The notes: generated from the letters alone by a model not told the origin. A stretch of 64,000 bases of DNA from Haliotis cracherodii (GCF_022045235.1 NW_027266265.1:34100001-34164000), one strand, 5' to 3'. Counted from the first letter of the stretch, positions 18,181-62,600 are shown. A program made the numbers and translations.

Positions 18181-19638
18181 ACTGAACAACAAAAGTTCCT
18201 GTGACATTGAATAAGATTTATTGCAAAGTTATGTTTTTACCAAATCTGAAACAATTTCGGTTTGTAACAGATAGAAGACTCCTGTAAGTGTTCAAATGGT
18301 TTAATTTGCCAAACTGAAATCAGAAAATGCGAGATTTCATAAAAAACACCCCATGAACATGCCAAAATGTCATTTACAAATCAATAGCGTCTGTGTCCAC
18401 CTCTGGGTGCGATGCAAGCAACACATCTTCGTCTCATGGAATGGACCAGGCGTCTCACAAAGTCCTGCGGGATATCTGTCCATATCTGCCGGAGCATGTT
18501 TCGAAGTTCCTGGAGTGTCTGTGGAACACGTGGTTGACGTCGAAGGCACCGATTCATCTCATCCCACATGTGCACGATTGGTGAGAGATCAGGGGAGCGA
18601 CGGGATGACATTCACGTTATTTGTTGAAGATGAATCCTGAACAAGTCGAGCAATATGAGGCCGGGCGTTGTTATGTTGAAAGGTAATGCCTGTGCCATTA
18701 CGACGCAAAAACAGTAGAACAACAGACCCGATGATCTCGTCGCGGTAGCGCTGTCCATTGAGATTTCCCTCTTCCACTATCAAACGGGTCCTCTGTCTTG
18801 CTGTAATCCCACCCCATACCATGACGCTGCCGCCCCCGAACCGATCTTCTTCCATGACACAATGATTGACGTAACGTTCACCTCGACGTCGGGACACTCG
18901 AATCCGTCCATCGCTGTGGCTGAGGTGAAAACGAGACTCGTCAGTGAATAGAACTTGTCCCCACTGCATAGCCGTCCATGGGCTTGACGGTGGTTTCCTG
19001 TCAAAATGGGACGTCGGGCGGGTCTTCTGGTGACAACCCCTGCACATCAGGGGCGACTACGTACGGTTTGTGAAGAGACTCGTCGAAGGCCAGGGATGCT
19101 TCTTGCAGTCTCTGTTGCTGGCTGGAATCGATTTCGTAGGTGTGTTGTTCGAATCCAGTTCGATTATTGGTTACGCGTGGCCTGCCACTCCGAGGATGGT
19201 CTCTGACTGCATTCGTCTGTTGCAAGCGTTGCCATAAACACCAAATGGTGTTTCTGTGGACTTTAAATTGTCTTGCAGCATCACGTTGACTCGATCCTGC
19301 TTCAAGCATACGAATGGCTCGCAGACGCTGATTTTCGGATAGGCGTGGCATTTCGTAATGTTGAATAATTGCGTAATTTTGTTGTTTTTCTGAGTGATTG
19401 TTATCAGCACGATGCTAAACAATGCATATGGAATCCCGTTAACGCACATGTTTTCACACCCATTCTTGGGTAGTTAAATGCATGGGGCTTGTATAAAAGT
19501 CAACTTTTGCATGGAAAGCATGCTTTTCCGTAGTAGTTGCGTTTTTGTGACTTGATTCCATACATGTACTACAATATTGAAAACCAAACTTTATTTGTTT
19601 GAAAAATACACTAAAATATTGGTGTCACGGGAACTTTT
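18181..19638 (-). mobile_element. Tc1-family DNA transposon with frameshifted transposase (18381-19351)
   Basis: MPRLSENQRLRAI..HTH..RSGRPR; VLFTDESRF; GGGSVMVWGGI; FQHNNARPH; SPDLSPIVHMWD, split over three frames; TIR core aaaagttcctgtgaca (18191) / tgtcacgggaactttt (19623); empty site in unit 1 at ~4240. Confidence 0.95.
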
Positions 19639-41733: not shown

Positions 41734-43164
41734 CCCTTTCAAAAGAAAGTATCCCGGATATATATAAAAATATCCCGGATATATATAGGAGTATTGAAAT
41801 TCAATCACTATCTCAAGCACACAGCTATCAACAGTGTTATTACAAAGTGAAAAATGTACGTAACATCACTTCGTGTCATGTTCGGGATAAATACCCGACA
41901 AACAAACGAAATTACCAATACTGAAATAAAAAATAGATTAACAAATCTAGAGTGGTCTAGTGGAACAGATTGATAGATGTAAACGAGAATTGGCTAGCAT
42001 GGAAGTCCCCTGTTCACCACTTCTGCAATACCTAAGTTCCTCAGTTTCATGCATTCAATGGGATTACTCCCTCAGGCGACATTTCTGTTCTTGGTTTACG
42101 GATGCGCCGCTCTTTCAAAGTCCCAATGTTGAAAAACAAAATGTGAATACATTTACAACTGCTTTATTTGTTACCGCAGACCTAATGCATAAGCAGTTCG
42201 GACAAATAATATGTTTATTTATATTAAAATCATAGTACAAGTTCGTATTGTCAGCGACTTGAAAATAACAACGGAAAGATATAAGTCGTTGACTGTAAAA
42301 CAAAAGGGAAGTCACTCTGGCATTTCTCGCTGAGATCCTTCTCTGTAACCATCAACGCAAAGCGCAGTGGCGCCAAGTGTAATCGTCGCCCATGCCTGTC
42401 TGCCGTGCTTACAATGTGTGAAGTCAGTTTCTGGTGTTCCCCGCCATGATATTACTTGAATAATACTAACAGCGTCGTCAAATCCAATTCCGACGTTGCT
42501 TCATTCTTTCATTAAGATAGAAATGTATAAATTGTCTTTCACGACCGGCCAAAACACAAATAGTATTTAAAGTTTCAGAGAAGATGTTTCCAGAGGATGA
42601 CTAAGAAAGAAAACACATGAATGACATGAACTCGGATATGTATATACAGCTAATAACTTTAAGTGGTGTTTTCCAGATTAAAGCAGAACAGCACAGTTCA
42701 CTGGATCCTACAATAATGCAAACTTCAACATCAGTAATCTGTCCTAACCAAAGTCGACACATCTTCAAACCGATCTACTTGTGACATAGAAATGACATAT
42801 AAATCAGATATGCTCTAGTAAACTTTGATGAATATAACTAAAGTATTTCAATAATGTGAGGGCTTTTTACCCTTAATGCGGACAGAATTGATGGATTGAG
42901 TGGCATGCTAGGTGGTAGGTTCCCCACCGTAATGTACGACTCAAAAGAGGTTTAAGACAATCCGATTCCTTCATATTTCTATAGTTAATCTGTCATGGCA
43001 TGATATGGTATGGAACAGTACTAAAACGAGATAAAAATCAAACCAAACTCATGTATGAAGTGCAACTATCTTTCCATCAAGTCTTGGAAAAAAAGATCTT
43101 CTCTACGGAAAACTAATTAAAAAATCTGGTGAAATAGTTTATTCAGTGTGGTTAACAAGAATAA

Positions 43165-45718
43165 CTAAACTTTGGGATATGTGGCGTGAAGCTTTCTTAC
43201 GCATTGAGTAACCTGGTCAAGATTTCCGACGCAGATGTAGGTGACGTAGGATAACTTGTGCAAGCTTCCATTTGGGAAAGCCTTCTTGCGGAACCCCGAT
43301 CCCCATTTACTGGTTCCACTACCAAAGGCACTTCCGAAAAGTGCCCCATTGTAAAAGTGAGCATCTGTGTCTTGGCCTTCTGGAGAGTAGACTCCCATTG
43401 CATGCCTGTGATCTGATGTTGCAAGAATAACAGGGTATTTGCTGCTGTACGGTTGTATCTGGCCATTACCCAAATTGAGACTTTTAAGGATTTGGAACTC
43501 TCCTGTCAAATAACCAGTTGGAGCTGCAATATTATGTGAAACATACCCAGCTGGCCAATGGCCACCAATAGTGAACATTGACTCATATTTGATGCAATGA
43601 GACATTTCAGCACAACCTATTGTCACAGTCTTTGAGAAGTCGTATTCGTAAGTGTCCACAGTGTTTTTTGTAGGTACACCTGGTAAGCATGAAGGATTCT
43701 TCGAGGCTGCCGACCCGTGGTCACCGTGACGAAGCCAGAAAGCTGGGTGATTCTGAAAAACAAACAAGAATAAGCCTTCAGCTCGTGATGTCATTTATTT
43801 AAATATTTGTAACGTGACATTTTTTAAAGTTTACCTTGGAAGAAAGTAGCGAGGTTATGCATGAGTCAGGTGTGATTACCACTTTGGTGAAACCCACGAG
43901 CACGATATGGTGTTGACAAACCTCGAAACCTAATCAGGGCGAATATAGAATTCGAATCCACGATCATACATTTCTCACACGCCTGACAGCTGCAGCTGTG
44001 CTCAGTGGGTTGCGGAACCTAGACGGCTTGGCTACTCGTACCCACTTAAAGCTTAGGAAAACTGTTGACCAGATTATAGATATTATACATTTTGACGCCA
44101 ATCAGTAGTTATATGACTTGTTATCTTCTCAGTTGACTTTGAAAACATGAATATGTGAAATGGCCTTCATGAACATACAACAAAATCCACCACAACAGTT
44201 CAAATATCGTCAATGAATTGTATATAGAATAGTATATGAGTAATAGTATACATGGTTACTAAATAGCATGCACATGTCGTCTTTTAAAATCGTATTCAAA
44301 TATGTTAACAATAATACATACTGTCGTTTTTAAGATATTCCTTTGTGCTATTACACTTATTATCTTGGACGTCGTGGTCGATCGTTTGCCGTCATCTCTT
44401 CCTCCCGCTTCGGTAGGGTTGAAACACTCCCCGTATGGGTGAACGTTGACCACCATCTGAAGCTCTCTGCCATGGTCCCATGCATTAATGAACTCCTTGT
44501 TGTCCCAGACCAGACTGTCAATCGCTCCTCCCATCCTAGCAGAGGCACTGATGAAGAGGTCATGGTGTTGATTTGATATGGTCCACCTTCCGTTATAGCC
44601 TCCTTCGACATACCCTAGCTTTTTCTCACTCTGATGTGTCAAGTAGTGGTTAATAGCTTGATGATAGTTGGTGCCAAACGTTTTGGAAAGGTCAGCATAT
44701 CTGAAATGAATTTTTTTTTTTTAAAATAAAAACATTCTGAGGCATATAGGGGTAACCTCATGGTTAAAGCATTCGCTCGTCACACCGAAGACATGCGTTT
44801 GATTCATAACATGGATGCATGTGAGGCACAGTTCTGTGTCACATTGTGAAATGGCTATGATATTGCTAAAAGCGGCATTGAGAGGTATGGACTAACCTAC
44901 CAGCAACGAGAAATTACGGATTTTCCGGAGCAAACTAATGACGTTTTCGATCTGGGTATAAGGTACTCTCAACATTAAGTCACGACAGATAATCCGGAAT
45001 TCCGAACAGTTTATTGTTTTTTTATTATCCGTCTTCTTGTTTCTGAGAGAAAAATAAGTTTCCTGAACTCAAATCAGAATGAACAGTTGATGACGTCTTC
45101 TTCATATGTGTGAGTCCTTATATAACACAATCAGTTGTTGGAAGAGAAAGGCTAAATTGTATCTTTTTAAAGCGACAAATCCCTCTCCTCATCCATAAGA
45201 AATCTTAATCTGCTTCAAACGTGTCATTATATGATATCTTGTCCTCATCGTGTTACTCATGTAAAAACCAATGGACGCCAATTTCACACAATCCAGAAGA
45301 TGTACAATCATTGAAATCCTCCACTCAGACACAGTAAACTGACCCGTTTACTGACCTACACTCATTGAAATCCTCCCCAGTGTTTGAAATGGAATAGAGT
45401 GTCTAAAATGTTTACAAACTTACTCACCTAAACTGCATTGCGTTATCATTTGGAAAATATGCGTAAAGAAATGTCCTCGGAATTTGCACTTCAGACGTTT
45501 TTTGTCTGTACATACTCATAGTGGGATCTATATACCACTATACATGTCTAACTGCCTATGAATGACTGCCTGTTATATGTAAAGACATACCATATAAAGT
45601 GCTTATTGGAAGAACTTTTTTTTATAGACATACTGTGTCTGAGTGGGGTATTCATGTTAAATGGTATCTCAGTGAGCTAGCACTATAAATGAGCATTTGT
45701 CCGGACAAGTACAAGCAG

Positions 45719-45753
<35 letters not shown>

Positions 45754-47221
45754 CATGCACGTCGCTATATAAGTGCAATAATCTTGGACGCGACATTAAA
45801 CCCAATTTCACCTCACCTCACACAACACTATTCTAGATATCAATAATGGAGTATGGACCTGGCAATCCAGTGACTGATATTTTGAACAACATCGATCCAG
45901 GCAGTTTGGATATCTGACCACTTAGTCACCTCGTAGACAAGGTTGATGCGGTAGCGTATACCTTTTAAGATACTGTTTCGAGTGGAAGCTACCACAACCC
46001 TGCCTTCCCTCGCTGATCCCCTTTGAAAGCCAGTGTTGTTTAGCGGCAGCTTTAGAGTTGATGCCCATCTGGTGAAGGTCTGCGTGAGTGTTGACATAGA
46101 ATGTTGGGTCAAACACCAAGGGTGACGCCAGGTCCACAGCAGCATCTGGAGTGTAAAGTCTAAAATGTATTGGGATACAGAAATTCGTTAATTCAGAGTG
46201 ACAAAACACTTCGTACAAGAATACAGTACAAGAGGGATGACTTTAACTTTTTGATAGTCAACTTCCCTTTATGTTGAGCAATAGTTCAGCACCAGCCTTT
46301 GGTGTCCACGTTTCACAACTTTAACAATGTTACAATCGAACATGCTATGATGATTTCACATATAACACTATTGTTCACAAGTTGTTTTTGTTAACGTTAC
46401 AACCACCCATGCCTCCTTTCCCAAAACGACAACTAAAATTAGGTCGCATTATATTACAACGCGCGGCCTGATTGGTCCGACTGTGTCTGGTTGAGCATTA
46501 TTCAGAAGCTACCTTAAAACAAGTGCAATAGTACTGACTAGTGTAGACGAAAATAAAGTTACAAGAGAGAGACCCATTTCAGCTGTGCATTCAAAGGACA
46601 TCTATACCTCCTGTAATTTAAGTGACATAATAAATATAAAATACGTTGTTTCGTACTGAATCATAGTGAGTGATTTCGCTTCACGCCCATTAAAATCAGA
46701 TCTTGAATTCCGATACGATACATCTCTGCGTGAAGGTCACTTGCACAGAAGTTGGCATCCTGTGAACTTTCTAATCAATCGGTTAGCGTCGACGTTTCTA
46801 TATTTCGGTACGAGTGAGCTCTGCATGCAAAACAGCATATCTCTTTTTTTTCTACCTTGAAAACGAACCAGAACGACAAGTTCATAAGTTAGAAAGTTTA
46901 GCGACGCCATTGTGTAGGTGTGTATATTCCATACACCCTGTTGTTTCTGACCATCTTCACACAAGACGGAAAACGGAGTATCATCGCAGGAATTTTGGAA
47001 TCAAGGTGACAGAACTGAACTGCTTCCCTTGCCAAAACAATACATAAAAGTCTGGACAACACTCAGATCTTATTCTCCAGATGGAATCAACCCCACACGC
47101 ACGTTAAAGGAAAATTTATGAGACGAATGAGTATCCATAACAATACGCTAGCATACAATACGTATCTATACATACCAACAAAACAGAATACTGCTGGGAG
47201 GATAGTCACAATGAGCAACAT
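43165..47221 (-). CDS. Gene E: uncharacterised secreted protein, 398 aa; exons 47221-47176, 46145-45962, 44700-44322, 43752-43165
   Basis: Intron phases 1, 2, 0 join into one open frame: MLLIVTILPAVFCFVDA-AVDLASPLVFDPTFYVNTHADL...HWLSKGISEGRQGCGSFHSKQYLKRYADL...GAIDSLVWDNKEFINAWDHGRELQ...ECFNPTEAGG...ILKTTNHPAFWL...HATYPKV*. TATAAA 47266-47261; AATAAA 43143-43138. Confidence 0.88.
46225..46400 (+). mobile_element. Penelope-like RT fragment in intron 1 of gene E
   Basis: Translates YKRDDFNFLIVNFPFMLSNSSAPAFGVHVSQL, matching the DKRDDFxFxIVNFP..YGVYxSQL motif. Confidence 0.65.
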
Positions 47222-47739
47222 TGTGATGTCTATCTGTATAATTCCTTGTCTTGAACTGTTTTTATAAGGTATGCCACCTGGTTAGATCACTTGCCATGAC
47301 ATGAACATGACATTTTGAGAGATTAGATTTGGTGTAACAAAGGCGTCAGATTAAAAAAACATTAGCAGATAAAGGTATTTATAAATACATTGTGTGTGGT
47401 AAGAGGCGATTAAGATGGATCAGGGGACCAGGCTTCATCGACGGCATGGGACGTTGCCCATTCTATTGCCCACTGCTTTGTTTAGTCTACACTCCGTTAT
47501 CTACAAACCGCGTAATATAATTGAAATATTGCTGACTGTGGCGTAAAACAACATTATGACTCATCATGTTTGATCCGTTTCTACAATGCAGATGCTTCCA
47601 TCATCTAGACGCAGTGATAATGCGACGCCATCATTTAATGGAATTTAGTAAAACGGTATCAACATTGGCTAGTGAAAGAATTTAGCTTCATAAAAGTAAT
47701 GCACCCAACAACAATAAAGTGTGTAATTATAAGTGAGAA

Positions 47740-50222
47740 CGCATGTGTATTGTGTGACGTGTTCGTGTAACACTCCATGTGTATTGTGTGACGAGTGCGT
47801 GAAACCCTCCACGTGTATTGTGTGACGAGTGCGTGGAACCTTCCATTTGTGATGTGTTCGTGAAAGCATCCACGTGTATAAGGTGATGTGTTTGTGAAAG
47901 CATCCACGTGTATTGTGTAATTTGTTCGTGAAACCCTCCACTTGTATTGTGTGACGAGTGCGTGAAACCCTCCACGTGTCATGTGTTCGTGAAACCCTCC
48001 ATGTGTATTGTGTGATGTGTGCGTAAAACCCTCCATGTGTGTTGTGTTCAGGAAAGCATCCGAGTGTATTGTGTGATGTGTTCGTGAAACCATCCATGTG
48101 TATTGTGTGACGAGTGCGTGAAACCCTCCACGTGTAATGTGTGATGTGTGCGTGAAACCATGCATGTGTATTGGGTGAGGAGTGTGTGAAACCCTCCACG
48201 TGTAATGTGTGATGTGTGCGTGAACCATACATGTGTCATGTATTCGTGTTTCATAAAAGTAATGCATCCAACAACAATAAAGTGTGTAATTATAAGTGAG
48301 AACGCATGTGTATTGTGCGACGTGTTCGTGTAACACTCCATTAGTATTGTGTGACGAGTGCGTGAAACCCTCCACGTGTATTGTGTGATGTGTTCGTGAA
48401 ACCATCCATGTGTATTGTGTGACGAGTGCGTGAAACCCTCCACGTGTATTGTGTGATGTGTTCGTGAAACCATCCATGTGTATTGTGTGACGAGTGCGTG
48501 AAACCCTCCGCTTGTATTGTGTGATGTGTTCGTGAAAGCATCCACGTGTATTGTGTGATGTGTTCGTGAAACCCTCCACGTGTATTGTATGATGTTTTGC
48601 GTGAAACCATCAATGTGTGATGTGTTCGTGAAAGCATCCATGTGAATTGTGTGATGTGTTCGTGAAACCCTCTACGTGTATTGTGTGACGAGTGCGTGAA
48701 ACTATCCATGTGTGACGTGTGCGTGAAACCATCCACCTGTAATGTGTGATATGTTTGTGAAATCATCAATGTATGATGTGTTTGTGAAAACATCCACATG
48801 TATTGTGTGATGTGTTCGTGAAACCCTCAACTTGTATTGTGTGACGAGTGCGTGAAACCCTCCACGTGTATTGTGTGTTGTGTGCGTGAAACCCTCCACA
48901 TGTATTGCGTGATGTGTTCGTGAAACCTTCCACATGTTTTGTGTGACGTTTTCGTGAAACCATCCATGTGTGATGTGTGACGTGTGCGAGCAAAAAAGCA
49001 TCCATGTGTGATATGTGATGTTTTCGTGAAACCATCCATGTGTGATTTGTGACGTGTGCGTGAGAGCATCATTGTGTGATGTTTTCGTGAAATCCTCCAC
49101 GTATATTGAGTGATGTGTGCGTGAAACCATCCATGTGTGATGTGTTCGTGAAACCATCCACGTGTGACGTGTGACGTATTCATGAACGCATCCATGTGTG
49201 ATGTGTTCGTGAAACCCTCCATGTGTATTGTGTGATGTGTTCATGAAACCTTTAACGTATATTCTGTGATGTGTTATGAGACACTTGTAACACTACTTTC
49301 CATGGGCATTTTGTGAGCCCAAACAGCTGCACTGTATAGTCGTGCAACTGCACTGTATAATTGACCAACTCAGCAGAATAATGACTGGTCAGCTGACGTA
49401 CTTATGTAAGCAGCCTAATTGCTGACAGAGTGAATGTCAAGTACTTATATAAACAGCATAATTGCTGACATAGCGAATGTCAAGTTAATCAGAACTGACT
49501 AGCTCAGCAGGATAATGATCGGTCAGCTGTCTGTAAAAGCAGGCATGTTGTGTTAACAAGAGAGAACCGACAAACCATCGGAGGAGCGCAGTCACAGTAT
49601 TAGAGAGGAAAACCAGGGACAAGGAGAGCTCGAGACAAGCACTGACCAGCCAGTCCAGCCCTCAGCTGCCCAAGTATCAACGTGACTTCGTCGTCTTCCT
49701 ATGTTCGACTCTGTAACTAGTAATCGCCCGGTTCTGTAGTTCTACTGTGTTAATAAAGAAACCATTTTGCCACCACCACAACTTGTTGTTCAAGTGCACA
49801 GAGGTGTTACACACTACACGTATATTTTGTTATGTGCTGATGAGACACTACGCGTGTATTTTGTTATGTGTTTATGAGACACTACACGTTTATTTTGTGA
49901 TGTGTTAATGAGACACTACACGTGTATTTTGTGATGTGTTGATGAGACACTACACGTGTATTTTGTGATGTGTTAATGAGACACTACACGTGTATTTTGT
50001 TATGTGTTTATGAGACACTACACGTTTATTCTATGATGTATTTGTGAGACACTACACGTGTTTCTGTGATGTGTTTCTGAGACACTACACGTGTATTCTG
50101 TGATGTGTTTATGAGACACTACGCTTGTATTTTGTGATGTGTTTATAAGACACTACACGTTTATTCTATGATGTGTTTATGAGACACTACACGTGTATTT
50201 TGTGATGTTTTATGAGACACTA
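47740..50222. repeat. 34-bp minisatellite array, two subtypes separated by a solo LTR
   Basis: gtgaaaccctccacgtgtattgtgtgatgtgttc (47740-49250) and gagacactacacgtgtattttgtgatgtgtttat (49812-50222); a ~100-bp unique flank is also repeated (47686 and 48250). Confidence 0.95.
49286..49811. mobile_element. Solo LTR (526 bp), probably Gypsy-type
   Basis: Begins TGTAACAC, ends GTGTTACA; 4-bp TSD CACT; internal TATATAA (~49446) and AATAAA (~49752). Confidence 0.8.
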
Positions 50223-50228
50223 TGCGTA

Positions 50229-50965
50229 TGATATGGTCCACCTCCCGTTATAGCCTCCCTCGACATACCCCAGCCGTTTCTCATTCTGATGGTCCAAATA
50301 ATGTTGAACAGCTTGATGGTAGTTTGAGCCAAATGCTTTGGAAAGGTCATCATATCTAAAATGATAATATGATTACAATCTGGCAAGTGAACGAAGAGAC
50401 ATCAGGGCATGTGTGATTGGTGTGTAAAATGTATCAACAGGTCTCAAATCGCAATAACAACCTCTGATTGAAACAACGGATTTGACGGTCGCTTCACCGG
50501 TGACACAATTATTTGTATAGAATTACTTCTTTTCAGTTACTGCAGGCAATTTAAATAGTTACATACAAAATGACAGGTGATAAATTGCAGCCTTGTGTAA
50601 CTGGAATTGTCAATGTATGTGTGCCAAAGGGCAACTTTGATTTGATTGACTATCATGGTTTCTGTCACAAATGTGAATCTCAACACGTACTGTACTATGT
50701 ACCATGCCTGTCAGTAGTTAACTGCATCCATGCCTCGCAACTCCTAGTGATCTATTAAATATCATCCTATGTTGATAAAACTACCTTTGGAGGTACTGTT
50801 TGGAATGAAAGCTGCCACACCCTTGTCGCCCCTCGCGTATGCCTTTGGTAAGCCAGTGAGTCCTTGCAGCACCAGTGGTGTGTATTCCAAGTCGGTAAAG
50901 GTCGGGATTGGTGTTGACATAAAATGTCGGATCAAAGACAAGGGGTGATGCAAAATCCTCTCCGG
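50229..50965 (-). pseudogene. Gene F: truncated paralog of gene E (exon-2 equivalent 50965-50785; exon-3 equivalent 50355-50229, cut off by the minisatellite)
   Basis: GEDFASPLVFDPTFYVNTNPDLYRLGIHTTGAARTHWLTKGIREGRQGCGSFHSKQYLQR | YDDLSKAFGSNYHQAVQHYLDHQNEKRLGYVEGGYNGRWTIS, then homology stops at the 34-bp array; same intron phases as E; signal exon not confidently located. Confidence 0.75.
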
Positions 50966-53170: not shown

Positions 53171-53789
53171 CTGCAGCACATGAAGCATATAGGGTGACTC
53201 CCTATGCGATAATGAGTAGGATATACCCCTCTGTTCATCCAGTCATACAAAAGGGTGCCCAGAAGGATGAGATGATGAGCGCTTTGAGCATGCGCTGAGT
53301 GTATGGAGGCAAGCGCAATATAAGTGCAAACATTATATATTGTAAGTAAAGGAAGGGACACTGCACCAAAGTCCACAGGTCAACATTTGTATACAACTCG
53401 CTGCCAATTCAGTCGCTGCCCATACCGAGTGATTCACCGATAACATCATTATGAAAGTTCTGAAGTTGCAATGTTTCCATACTGGATCCAGAATTAGCTT
53501 TTATTTTGTCTGTGTAACATGTTCAGCAAAACAAACTTCAGAAAACTCACGTTCTGACAGTTGAACCCACGTATCTGAATAATGGTATATCACCAGATCA
53601 AGCGGAAAATATGAAATCTAAATGTTCATATTTATTAATCTGCTTTCCTGAAAAAATAAATTTATCGACATTCTGAATATCAATATTGGCTGTGTGGTTA
53701 GACACTTTTGAAATATTTTGAAGTACAAGGGGTTGGACAAAGATATGACATGCACGCAGACTGTGTTTACTGCAAACAAGGGTGGTGAG

Positions 53790-55300
53790 TTTCAGTACAG
53801 GACCTGCACATTGGGGTCTGTACTGTACACTAGGGTGGTAGGCTTCATTATAGGGCCTGCACGTAGGAGTCTGGAATGTACACTAGGGTGGTGGGTTTCA
53901 ATATAGGACCCGCACATAGGGGTCTGTACTGTACACTAGGGTGGTGGGCTTCAGTATAGGACCTCAACACTGGAGTGTGTACTGTACACTAGGGTGGTGG
54001 GCTTCAATATAAGACCTGCACACTGGAGTGTTTACCGTACACTAGGGTGGTGGGCTTCAGTATAGGGCCTGCATATTGGGGTCTGTACTGTACACTAGGG
54101 TGGTGGGCTTGCATTAGGACCTGCCTATTGGGGTCTGCACTGTACACTAGGGTAGTGGGCTTCAATATAGGACCTGCATATTGGGGTCTGTACTGTACAC
54201 TAGGGTGGTGGGCTTCAATATAGGACCCGCACATAGGGGTCTGTACTGTACACTAGGGTGGTGGGCTTCAGTATAGGACCTCAACACTGGAGTGTGTACT
54301 GTACACTAGGGTGGTGGGCTTCAATATAAGACCTGCACACTGGAGTGTTTACTGTACACTAGGGTGGTGGGCTTCAATATAGGACCTGCACATAGGGGTG
54401 TGTACTGTACACTAGGGTGGAAGGCCTCAATATGGGACCTCAACACTGGAGTGTGTACTGTACACTAGGGTGGTAGGTTTCAATATAGGACCTGCACATA
54501 GGGGTGTGTACTGTACACTAGGGTTGTGGGCTTCAATATAGGACCTGCACATAGGGGTGTGTACTGTACACTAGGGTGGTGGGCTTCTATATTGGACCTG
54601 CAAACTGGAGTGTGTACTGTACACTAGGGTGGTAGGTTTCAATATAGGACCTGCACATAGGGGTGTGTACTGTACACTAGGGTGGTGGGCTTCAATATAG
54701 GACCTGCACACTGGAGTGTGTACTGTACACTAGGGTGGTGGGCTTCAATATAGGACCTGCACATAGGGGTGTGTACTGTACCCTAGGGTGGAAGGCCTCA
54801 ATATGGGACCTCAACACTGGAGTGTGTACTGTACACTAGGGTCGTGGGCCTCAATATGGGACCTCAACACTGGAGTGTGTACTGTACACTAGGGTCGTGG
54901 GCCTCAATATGGGACCTCAACACTGGAGTGTGTACTGTACACTAGGGTCGTGGGCCTCAATATGGGACCTCAACACTTGAGTGTGTACTGTACACTAGGG
55001 TCGTGGGCCTCAATATGGGACCTCAACACTTGAGTGTGTACTGTACACTAAGGTCGTGGGCCTCAATATGGGACCTCAACACTGGAGTGTGTACTGTACA
55101 CTAGGGTCGTGGGCCTCAATATGGGACCTCAACACTGGAGTGTGTACTGTACACTAGGGTCGTGGGCCTCAATATGGGACCTCAACACTGGAGTGTGTAC
55201 TGTACACTAGGGTGGTCGGTTTCAATATAGGACCTGCACATAGGGGTGTGTACTGTACACTAGGGTTGGATGTTTCGATATAGGACCTGCACTTAGGGGC
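53790..55300. repeat. 53-bp minisatellite, ~28 copies
   Basis: actgtacactagggtggtgggcttcaatataggacctgcacataggggtgtgt and variants. Confidence 0.95.
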
Positions 55301-59600: not shown

Positions 59601-62600
59601 TGTTCAGAGTACATAGGTGAGTGAGTGAGTGAGTGAGTGGGTGGGTGGGTTGGTGGGTGAGTGAGTGAGTGAGTGAGTGAGTGAGTGAGTGAGTGAGTGA
59701 ATGTTGTGTAAAGCCACTTTTAACAGTATTTTAGTAACTGTTATATTACGACGTCTTGGCTTTGTGTGGGAGGAAAGCACATGGACAGTTGAGTCGTGAT
59801 CCGGTTTGGTAAAAGTAACGTGATGGTAATTCTAGCTGTGGTGGTGTGGTGATGGTAGTTCTAATCTTGACTGGAACCAAAGGTCAGCTATGGCCACAAG
59901 GGGCGTAAACTACAAAGCCTCAGACGACTTTGTTCTTTGGCCAGTGAGTGAGTCTTCAAAAAGTTTGAACAGTATTCCAATTGTATAACCATCATACGTC
60001 TGCGCTTTGGATGAAAGTAAAAAGTAACAAAGGCCATTGGCGTTAATAATTTGCCAGAAACACGTGTATGTTCCTGACAGACCATTGATTATGATCAGGG
60101 GAAAGCTGGGATTCTAACTAACACGCGGATTATGGCACTTCCAATAGTGCCAAACAGCACAGCCAATTAATATGCTTTTTACTTCACAATTCCATACTGA
60201 TTAATGAACACATACTTATGATATTGATTTGTACAATGGACAATACTTTAAACAGGTTGACATCCATGTGAGATCCCTTAACATGTGACGTATAATTGTT
60301 CATTAACCTGTACTTTAGGTTCTACTTCTGGTTTTCCTGTTCACCCCTGCTGTCGTAGGCTATGACATTGATGACGTCGATGTTGATGAGGACTCAGTTG
60401 ACGTCAACGTGAGAGATAAACGCTTCATCAGGAGATACATCCTAAATTGTCCTCAACAAACTGACTTCTCACAGCCGTTCATGTTGTCCAGCAACGCCAC
60501 GGGATATCCCGAGTAAGAGGACTGGATTTGTCTATCTCACTGTAACGGGTGACGTGATGCTAATTCAGGGGTTCATGCGATATACATATTACGTTCCCGA
60601 ATTTAATTAAGTTACCCCAATGTAACTGAGGATTAATTCACTGAATCGGTAAGTGGCCGTGAGTGCCAACTTGATACCGTGATATCCTGCAGTCTCCATG
60701 ACAGTGCATGTGCCATGGTAGCTGAGATATCCTGCGAGTCTCCATTACAGTACATATGCCATGGTAGCTGAGATATCCTGCAGTCTCCATTACAGTACAT
60801 ATTCCATGGTAGCTGAGATATCCTGCAGTCTCCATGACAGTGGATATGCCATGGTAGCTGATATATCCTGCAGTCTCCATGACAGTGCATATGCCATGGT
60901 AGCTGATATATCCTGCGGTCTCCATTACAGTACATAGGCCCTGGTATCTGATATATCCTGCAGTCTCCATGACGGTGCATATGCCATGGTAGCTGAGATA
61001 TCCTGCAGTCTCCATGACAGTGCATATGCCATGGTAGCTGATATATCCTGCGGTCTCCATTACAGTACATATGCCATGGTAGCTGAGATATCCTGCAGTC
61101 TCTATTACAGTACATATGCCATGGTAGCTCATATATCCTGCAGTCTCCATGACAGTGCATATGCCATGGTAGCTGATATATCCTGCGGTCTCCATTACAG
61201 TACATATGCCATGGTAGCTGAGATATCCTGCAGTCTCCATGACGGTGCATATGCCATGGTAGCTGAGATATCCTGCAGTCTCCATTACAGTGCATATGCC
61301 ATGGTAGCTGATATATCCTGCGGTCTCCATTACAGTACATATGCCATGGTAGCTGAGATATCCTGCAGTCTCCATGACAGTGCATATGCAATGGTAGCTC
61401 ATATATCCTGCAGTCTCCATGACAGTGCATATGCCATGGTAGCTGAGATATCCTGCAGTCTCCATTACAGTACATATGTCATGGTAGCTGAGATATCCTG
61501 CAGTCTCCATGACAGTGCATATGCCATGGTAGCTGATATATCCTGCAGTCTCCAGTACTGTGCATAGGCCAAGGTAGCTCATATATCCTGCGGTCTCCAT
61601 TACAGTACATATGCCATGGTAGCTGAGATATCCTGCAGTCTCTATTACAGTACATATGCCATGGTAGCTCATATATCCTGCAGTCTCCATGACAGTGCAT
61701 ATGCCATGGTAGCTGATATATCCTGCAGTCCCCATTACAGTGCATAGGCCCTGGTATCTGATATATCCTGAGATGTATTTGTAATCTCCGTTTTGCAATT
61801 TTATGCGTCTTGATCTCCTCAATCGAGATCAGCTGAAGGTCCTGTTACAGGTCATAACTACAACTGACAAACGCATTCATTCACTTTTTACCTTCTTTGT
61901 ATTTGAATTAAGTAGTTGATTCCTGCATTTCTTTTATTGTCATCTTGATGTCTGTTTGATAGGGAAGCTATCAACAACGAAACTGCTGATGCGAACCTAA
62001 CTCCATGTCTCAGTTTATTCAACGCTTCGTCAACTGACCCCAAATTTCCAGAGGATCCTGTGTAAGTATCGTTTTGCAAATAAAGTCGAACGCAGTCGTC
62101 TCGAACTTGGATATGTCGAATCCGGTTGTGTCAAACTCACAGTCCAGTCCCGACACAATCTTACCAAATTAACCACTAGTTCAACGACAGCCGTCAAGTT
62201 TGAGTCGATAGAGCTCCTGTCCCGAAAGCGGAAGATCCGAGGTTCATACTAAATGGCGTTAAAAGATGGTACTTCTTGTTACCTTGCCTGTTGCTCGGCA
62301 TTAAGGGTAGAAAACAAGTACTGGTCAGCTATGTGTTAATATTGTGTCTGAGTGGCGTATCCATGATAAATTTAGGGGCGGTCGGGTAGCCTAGTGGTTA
62401 AAGCGTTCGCTCGTCACGCCGAAGACCTGGGTTCGATTCCCAACATGGGTACAATGTGTGAAGCCCATTTCTGGTGTCCCCCGCAGTGATATTGCTGGAA
62501 TATTGCTAAAAGCGGCTTAAAACCATACTCACTCACTCACCCATGACAAATTTAACCAAATATAATAAGAGAAGTATTATTATGCACCTACAAATTACGG

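Follow-up and report, generated by a model that had tools for sequence, protein, structure and literature searches.

Two described systems frame the gene considered here. P19 of the chlorovirus PBCV-1 (gene a286r; 8h2i) is a virion protein located beneath the capsid at the unique vertex and equipped with an N-terminal hinge; the accessible part of its source reports 125 copies per virion and a rod-like density in the trench of its arch-like beta-sandwich, and puts forward, as a proposal only, that it is a wall-degrading lyase (PMC9617893). In the GH174 endo-1,3-fucanases (8jd7, 9k1g), the beta-sheet-dominated domain is itself catalytic according to the available portion of PMC12534559, and D119, E120 and E218 are given as key residues in a table of PMC11943901; a further source on this family, likewise in excerpt, is PMC11685898. 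Here we analyse a stretch of 64,000 nucleotides from the abalone Haliotis cracherodii (GCF_022045235.1 NW_027266265.1:34100001-34164000; hereafter the window, with positions counted from its first letter) and describe a minus-strand gene (43165-47221) whose product is homologous to P19. At a probability of roughly 0.48, we favour the reading that this is a spliced gene of a P19-homologous family with a GH174-like fold whose members likely cleave polysaccharides, and that the abalone copy, which carries alanine at position 279, likely binds glycan without efficient cutting.

The locus is a real spliced gene. Its four exons (47221-47176, 46145-45962, 44700-44322 and 43752-43165) join in frame into 398 codons and a stop, the three GT-AG introns measure 1030, 1261 and 569 nt (phases 1, 2 and 0), and the product is letter-for-letter identical to P0001 (XP_071087217.1), an 'uncharacterized protein' of Haliotis cracherodii. 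The 569-nt intron is spliced out in the contigs of all seven compared runs that we guessed to be RNA, none being recorded as such, and is retained in the single run not so guessed; the 1261- and 1030-nt introns are skipped in two of the four runs covering both, the joint 47176/46145 being the one left by the 1030-nt intron. An artefact or contamination is ruled out by the splicing, by the 59 Mb contig and by orthologs in 12 named mollusc genera. The first-pass annotation had proposed this intact four-exon structure together with three signals, and two of these have counterparts: a candidate TATA box, TATAAA (47261-47266, minus strand), lies 45 nt upstream of the start codon, and the hydrophobic residues 1-17 probably form a signal peptide, so that the protein is likely secreted. 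The polyadenylation signal needs a correction: contigs of exon 4 continue beyond AATAAA at 43143, 21 nt past the stop, in four of four runs, reaching the edge of the compared stretch (42900) and then extending over 568-768 further letters. Distal AATAAA motifs at 42219 and 42168, of which about 0.9 would be expected by chance in that region, appear likelier, and would close a long 3' untranslated region (42163-43164, minus strand) that is covered by contigs to 42900 and would end below it.

The exons map onto a two-domain protein. Exon 1 (47176-47221; residues 1-15) encodes the hydrophobic N-terminus, and exon 2 (45962-46145; residues 16-77) the first repeat of a helical N-terminal domain, as judged from sequence, predicted structure and contigs. 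Exon 3 (44322-44700; residues 77-203) holds the second repeat and the start of the core, on sequence, contigs and conservation, including D152, H153, R155, Q158, V160 (alanine in the family), E168, N171, E174 and D180. The remaining core, with W209, K244, A279, Y284, Y337, K352 and W353, lies in exon 4 (43165-43752; residues 204-398 and stop; sequence, predicted structure and contigs). Both the two N-terminal repeats and the core motifs are present as originally described. An AlphaFold2 model of the protein (predicted local distance difference test, pLDDT, 93; predicted template modelling score, pTM, 0.90) places six helices within residues 29-98, followed by an 18-element beta core and a C-terminal helix, which predicts a helical repeat domain at residues 20-110 and a beta-supersandwich core at residues 112-398; a single-sequence model of exon 2 alone is poor (pLDDT 58).

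The same three structures lead in Foldseek and in two VIA-align runs: the GH174 enzyme Fun174A (8jd7; Z 22.8, root-mean-square deviation (rmsd) 3.1, 260 aligned residues, 12% identity; Z 21.9 in the wide search), P19 (8h2i; Z 21.1, rmsd 2.8, 233 aligned) and GH174 Fun174Sb with fucotetraose (9k1g; Z 20.9, rmsd 3.2, 261 aligned), the next entry following at Z 18.1. In a viral fold search, chlorovirus models rank first at 14-18% identity. For P19, the likeness extends to sequence. Searches of the PDB with the single protein and with a 38-sequence profile gave no match, and with a 150-sequence profile P19 is the sole match at E up to 10, with an E value of 1.3e-5 over 174 P19 residues; this alignment pairs the equivalents of K244, E279, Y337, K352 and W353 and does not reach the DHGR region. 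P19 and the abalone core share the arch-like beta-sandwich with its C-terminal helix, but the abalone protein differs in its probable signal peptide, helical repeat domain, predicted disulfides and Ala279 in place of the glutamate of P19. The GH174 enzymes share the beta-sandwich fold at only 10-12% identity and are not matched by the 150-sequence profile at E up to 10. Membership in GH174 is ruled out by this lack of sequence signal, CAZy families being sequence-defined. We know of no repeat domain in GH174 endo-fucanases.

More distant matches at Z 12-18 comprise PL26, GH36-like, GH38, GH2, PL4 and mutarotase domains. Galactose-mutarotase-like supersandwich proteins (aldose 1-epimerase, PL4 domain I and the accessory domains of PL26, GH2 and GH38) belong to the same fold class, but the abalone protein has no Pfam match and its conserved residues are others. 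The PL4 rhamnogalacturonan lyase, in which two further domains follow the supersandwich catalytic domain, has a chain of 508 residues; the match (Z 14.5-15.3) is at domain level and covers residues 2-241, the rest of the chain having no counterpart. A carbohydrate-related beta-sandwich had been anticipated, and the core is indeed predicted to be one, its closest solved structures being carbohydrate-active enzymes.

Which residues characterise the family, and which of them has the abalone gene lost? Of the cores, 488 span 230 or more profile positions, and filtering these to less than 70% identity leaves 267, in which D152, H153, G154, R155, Q158, A160, E168, N171, P172, T173, E174, G176, D180, W209, K244, E279, Y284 and K352 are 93-100% conserved. 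The conservation of D152, H153, R155, Q158, E168, N171, E174, D180, K244, E279, Y284 and K352 is enzyme-like. In a mean-field covariation analysis (effective depth 340), 4 of the 120 strongest pairs connect strand 275-286 to strand 157-164, and 5 connect it to strand 350-360; the pair E174-K244 takes rank 6 and the pair 279-352 rank 86, while C169-C225 and C256-C377/C387 emerge as candidate disulfides. At codon 279 (43525-43527, minus strand; alignment, profile and contigs), the abalone gene encodes alanine, where 472 of the 488 homologs and P19 have glutamate. Alanine at this near-invariant site is a new observation; like the links to P19 and GH174, it was absent from the first-pass annotation. 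Codon 160 (44451-44453, minus strand) encodes valine, where 96% of the non-redundant family has alanine; in the close relatives seen, it varies in concert with codon 279.

The protein of H. rufescens (97.5% identical) carries both Ala279 and Val160, and coded organisms A-D have the same codon 279 as the abalone gene. Coded organisms E and F, with about 98% identity in exon 4, have other bases at 43526 and 44452 and thereby encode Glu279 and Ala160; H. rubra (XP_046559949.1) and H. asinina (74-75% identical, possibly a sister paralog) retain these two residues as well. Because organisms E and F keep the glutamate at such close identity, the change from Glu279 to alanine is a recent single-base event. 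Elsewhere, the intact paralog of the same genome has V279, S352 and M353, a Littorina paralog has V279, and no copy found in the genome carries the full set of conserved residues.

How might the family act on its glycan? We envision a trench, at the place where P19 has ligand density, that would be lined by R155, Q158, E279, Y337 and K352, with the strand bearing residue 279 lying between those bearing Q158/A160 and K352, an arrangement suggested by covariation rather than by coordinates. Glu279 beside Lys352 would then be the catalytic acid/base of a hydrolase or lyase, and the enzyme would be anchored at a cell surface through its repeat domain. As the most likely substrate we suggest, with low confidence, a glycan rich in fucose or rhamnose from the wall or capsule of microalgae or bacteria. 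A binding-only role of the abalone copy would follow in this scheme because its near-invariant Glu279 is gone.

Alternatively, the family may cleave glycans and the abalone copy may still do so, through D152/H153, E168, D180, K352 or Y337, with A160V and E279A merely retuning specificity. All other near-invariant polar residues are intact in this copy, the glutamate is also missing from 16 of the 488 homologs, and the gene is in frame and spliced in all organisms compared, synonymous codons at least equalling non-synonymous ones among the differences listed (9:6, 12:6, 9:4 and 10:9). We nevertheless consider continued activity unlikely, if clearly worth weighing, given that Glu279 is conserved as far as P19, whose alignment stops short of the DHGR region, that position 279 couples with K352, and that one paralog lost E279, K352 and W353 together. 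The same codon counts bear on the opposite idea that the gene is in decay, an enzyme whose function is no longer maintained in the abalone lineage. Two near-invariant sites changed on one branch, and the gene has damaged companions in the genome, one a truncated tandem copy and the other broken by a stop and a frameshift; however, the frame is intact and the transcript spliced in organisms A-D and H. rufescens, and synonymous changes outnumber non-synonymous ones in the three informative comparisons among them, which makes decay the most improbable of the functional alternatives.

The wider family speaks to a further alternative, namely that none of its members is catalytic and that Glu279 is a residue for binding glycans, in lectin-like adhesion proteins that serve on bacterial surfaces, at the vertex of the virus and in the mucus or immune defence of molluscs. 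Accessory domains occur in 14 of the 51 homologs scanned and include sorting tails of the type IX secretion system (6), peptidoglycan-binding domains (2), PKD, SprB, Ig, SASA esterase, DUF5648 and DUF4214; the ESM Atlas adds a sulfatase fusion in Planctomycetota, a lead only, the named clusters there all lying below 0.9. Adhesion would be a natural role for members fused to PKD, SprB, Ig or peptidoglycan-binding domains, and for P19 as a capsid component in 125 copies per virion, as given in the accessible part of its source. Solemya velum, which has a reduced gut, has also retained the family. Set against these points, some 12 polar residues are 93-100% conserved across bacteria and eukaryotes, a pattern commoner in enzymes, the best structural match is to a catalytic GH174 domain, and carbohydrate esterase and sulfatase fusions suit degradative enzymes. 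A wholly non-catalytic family therefore seems improbable to us, though less so than decay.

Several considerations weigh against a polysaccharide-cleaving family with a binding-only abalone copy, the reading that we prefer. A shared fold shows no function, and in many of the other enzymes matched the supersandwich fold forms an accessory domain. The fold comparison provides aligned ranges and does not reach the level of the GH174 key residues D119, E120 and E218. For aldose 1-epimerase (PF01263), neither the profile nor its His/Glu motifs have a counterpart: there was no Pfam match, and hhalign gave a probability of 0.1 against 7 members. With every other conserved polar residue intact in the abalone copy, Glu279 itself may be structural or bind substrate, and its coupling with position 352 may stem partly from the shared ancestry of gastropod paralogs that lost both residues. 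Bacterial neighbourhoods, called with a crude open reading frame finder that miscalled some GC-rich loci, are unconserved, no neighbour cluster exceeding 8 of 80 loci, and therefore lend no support from a polysaccharide locus. Glycan cleavage is the likely, predicted activity of the family.

The family comprises hundreds to thousands of members and has no Pfam, NCBIfam or PHROG model. The 38-sequence profile, with which the family searches were made, matched 2160 of 8000 candidate proteins scored and 1126 representatives with E values no higher than 1e-30; among the best 120 matches listed, the named homologs fall into 4 gastropod and 8 bivalve genera. Pfam and NCBIfam gave nothing meaningful for three exons of the abalone gene, Pfam has no family for core or repeat in 21 members, and PHROGs matched none of 5. 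A hydrophobic N-terminal stretch is found in 165 of 200 homologs. Several adjacent copies occur in Mytilus species (P0295 cluster), some auto-labelled 'SCP domain-containing'. We found no paper describing the family in the open-access literature, a coverage that leaves most subscription journals outside.

Bacterial homologs, which had been expected from the appearance of the protein, are abundant. A pattern search of GTDB gave 435 matches, of which 279 code for a relative, and the best 80 loci cover at least 12 bacterial phyla, foremost Planctomycetota (26), Pseudomonadota (16) and Bacteroidota (11). The repeat domain stands in frame with the core in 6 of these 80, namely four Myxococcota, Ideonella and one unassigned deltaproteobacterium, and full-length two-domain matches at 35-39% identity (about 38%) occur in Cystobacter, Pyxidicoccus and a Lysobacteraceae genome. 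One bacterial two-domain homolog (L101:1101-4924) lies about 1.2 kb from a gene of the WbsX glycosyltransferase family, a single case. The core is encoded on 3 of 18 viral-contig matches, and on one viral contig (L171:1565-3765) a core gene sits directly behind a gene seemingly carrying the repeat motif, in separate frames. The repeat domain, for which Pfam has no model, is mobile as a module; P0150, P0164, P0207, P0210 and P0256 contain 5-8 tandem copies with no core. The repeats had also been linked to GH25 lysozymes and glycosyltransferases. The former link was absent from 6 repeat-rich proteins scanned; for the latter, a fold search returned matches of 83-93 residues to giant-virus glycosyltransferases (26-35% identity, E 0.005-0.016), which are repeat-sized by length only, their aligned ranges not being given.

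Where did the animal gene come from? In FastTree on 324 cores, the molluscs have support 99 and the molluscs with a eukaryote sister clade 96. Quick IQ-TREE analyses of hand-picked sets gave 93 and 89 for the same groupings with 75 of the 488 cores, and 99 and 97 with 57 two-domain rows (Shimodaira-Hasegawa-like approximate likelihood ratio test, SH-aLRT); all trees are unrooted. The 57-row tree places a 31-row eukaryote-like group (82) amid bacterial two-domain sequences, with Myxococcota outside. In the best trees, the sister of the mollusc clade is an intron-bearing eukaryote lineage within a group that holds protist sequences. Several relatives are demonstrably eukaryotic: L092, which is outside the trees and was placed in the sister clade by its 54% identity to P0057, has several short GT-AG introns, L100/P0168 has one intron, L102/P0026 adjoins a MIIP gene, and P0090 and P0114 come from EukProt, P0114 being the foraminifer Bolivina argentea. 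The other 'eukaryote-like' rows owe that label to their clade and to short single-gene contigs alone. Compared by eye, one L092 intron lies 4 nt from intron 2 of the abalone gene and none at intron 3, which the abalone gene shares with another mollusc locus, L136.

A direct transfer from a bacterium to an early mollusc, with the other eukaryote sequences as separate transfers and independently of any function, would agree with the absence of named non-mollusc animals among the best 120 matches listed, where named animal matches are confined to gastropods and bivalves, and with L092 introns that do not coincide with those of abalone. Nor do approximately unbiased (AU) tests reject a grouping of molluscs with bacteria (p 0.318 and 0.0705). 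Against it stand the best trees, which place molluscs sister to intron-bearing eukaryotes (96, 89 and 97) and inside the 31-row eukaryote-like group, and the constrained trees, which are 11.9 and 24.6 log-likelihood units worse. Such a direct route is not favoured by the sequence comparisons, and we regard it as unlikely. The domesticated horizontal transfer suggested by the first-pass annotation stands as regards a spliced host gene with bacterial two-domain homologs; an animal-specific transfer is less likely, given the eukaryote sister group of the best trees. Considering the far greater bacterial diversity, the eukaryote genes plausibly derive from bacteria; the family would likely be bacterial in origin and would have entered eukaryotes before or outside the mollusc lineage. 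A comparable history has been described for the GH13_1 alpha-amylases, which the available portion of the source places in protists and in some animals, notably molluscs, and which were shaped by transfer and loss (PMC7003070). Both families show a patchy spread over protists and animals with molluscs among them, but the P19-related family is nameless, has viral and multi-phylum bacterial members, and its function is only predicted.

The genome contains at least four loci of the family, all copy counts being lower bounds: the gene itself, an intact paralog, a broken duplicate of that paralog and a truncated tandem copy. The intact paralog (P0377) is 23.6 Mb distant, has identical intron positions and shares 51% identity with the abalone protein. 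Its duplicate carries a stop and a frameshift in exon 3 (L175:4043-4959; G000:C2, 58.37 Mb), and its exon 4 was not found there. The tandem copy (50226-50965, minus strand) consists of an exon-2-like piece, a GT-AG intron and the first 43 codons of an exon-3-like piece, with 70-81% protein identity to the gene; it ends at a 34-bp satellite (49811-50222), and counterparts of exons 1 and 4 were not found nearby.

Large satellites upstream of the gene (47745-49275, 49811-50222 and 53763-55292) have periods of 34, 34 and 53 bp and account for the long His/Thr-rich open frames there. A further tandem array with Cys/His-rich open frames on both strands (60633-61844) is probably also a satellite. Two overlapping frames at 18589-19414 (minus strand) resemble what we take to be remnants of a Tc1/mariner transposase.

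What would the polysaccharide-cleaving reading mean more broadly? Conceivably, one microbial surface glycan links a chlorovirus wall-penetration protein, predatory and epibiotic bacteria, grazing protists and molluscs through a secreted glycan-cleaving family, gastropod paralogs having repeatedly lost the catalytic glutamate and black and red abalone representing a recent one-base natural knockout from enzyme to glycan binder; we regard this wider picture as doubtful. Soluble, secreted homologs should be easier to assay and are tied to the chlorovirus finger protein, which makes the lyase role proposed for P19 testable. The close abalone relatives that differ in Glu or Ala at position 279 offer a natural pair for a switch from enzyme to binder. 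If the family's members prove active, they would define a new carbohydrate-active family built on a GH174-like fold and might explain how molluscs handle algal or bacterial surface glycans.

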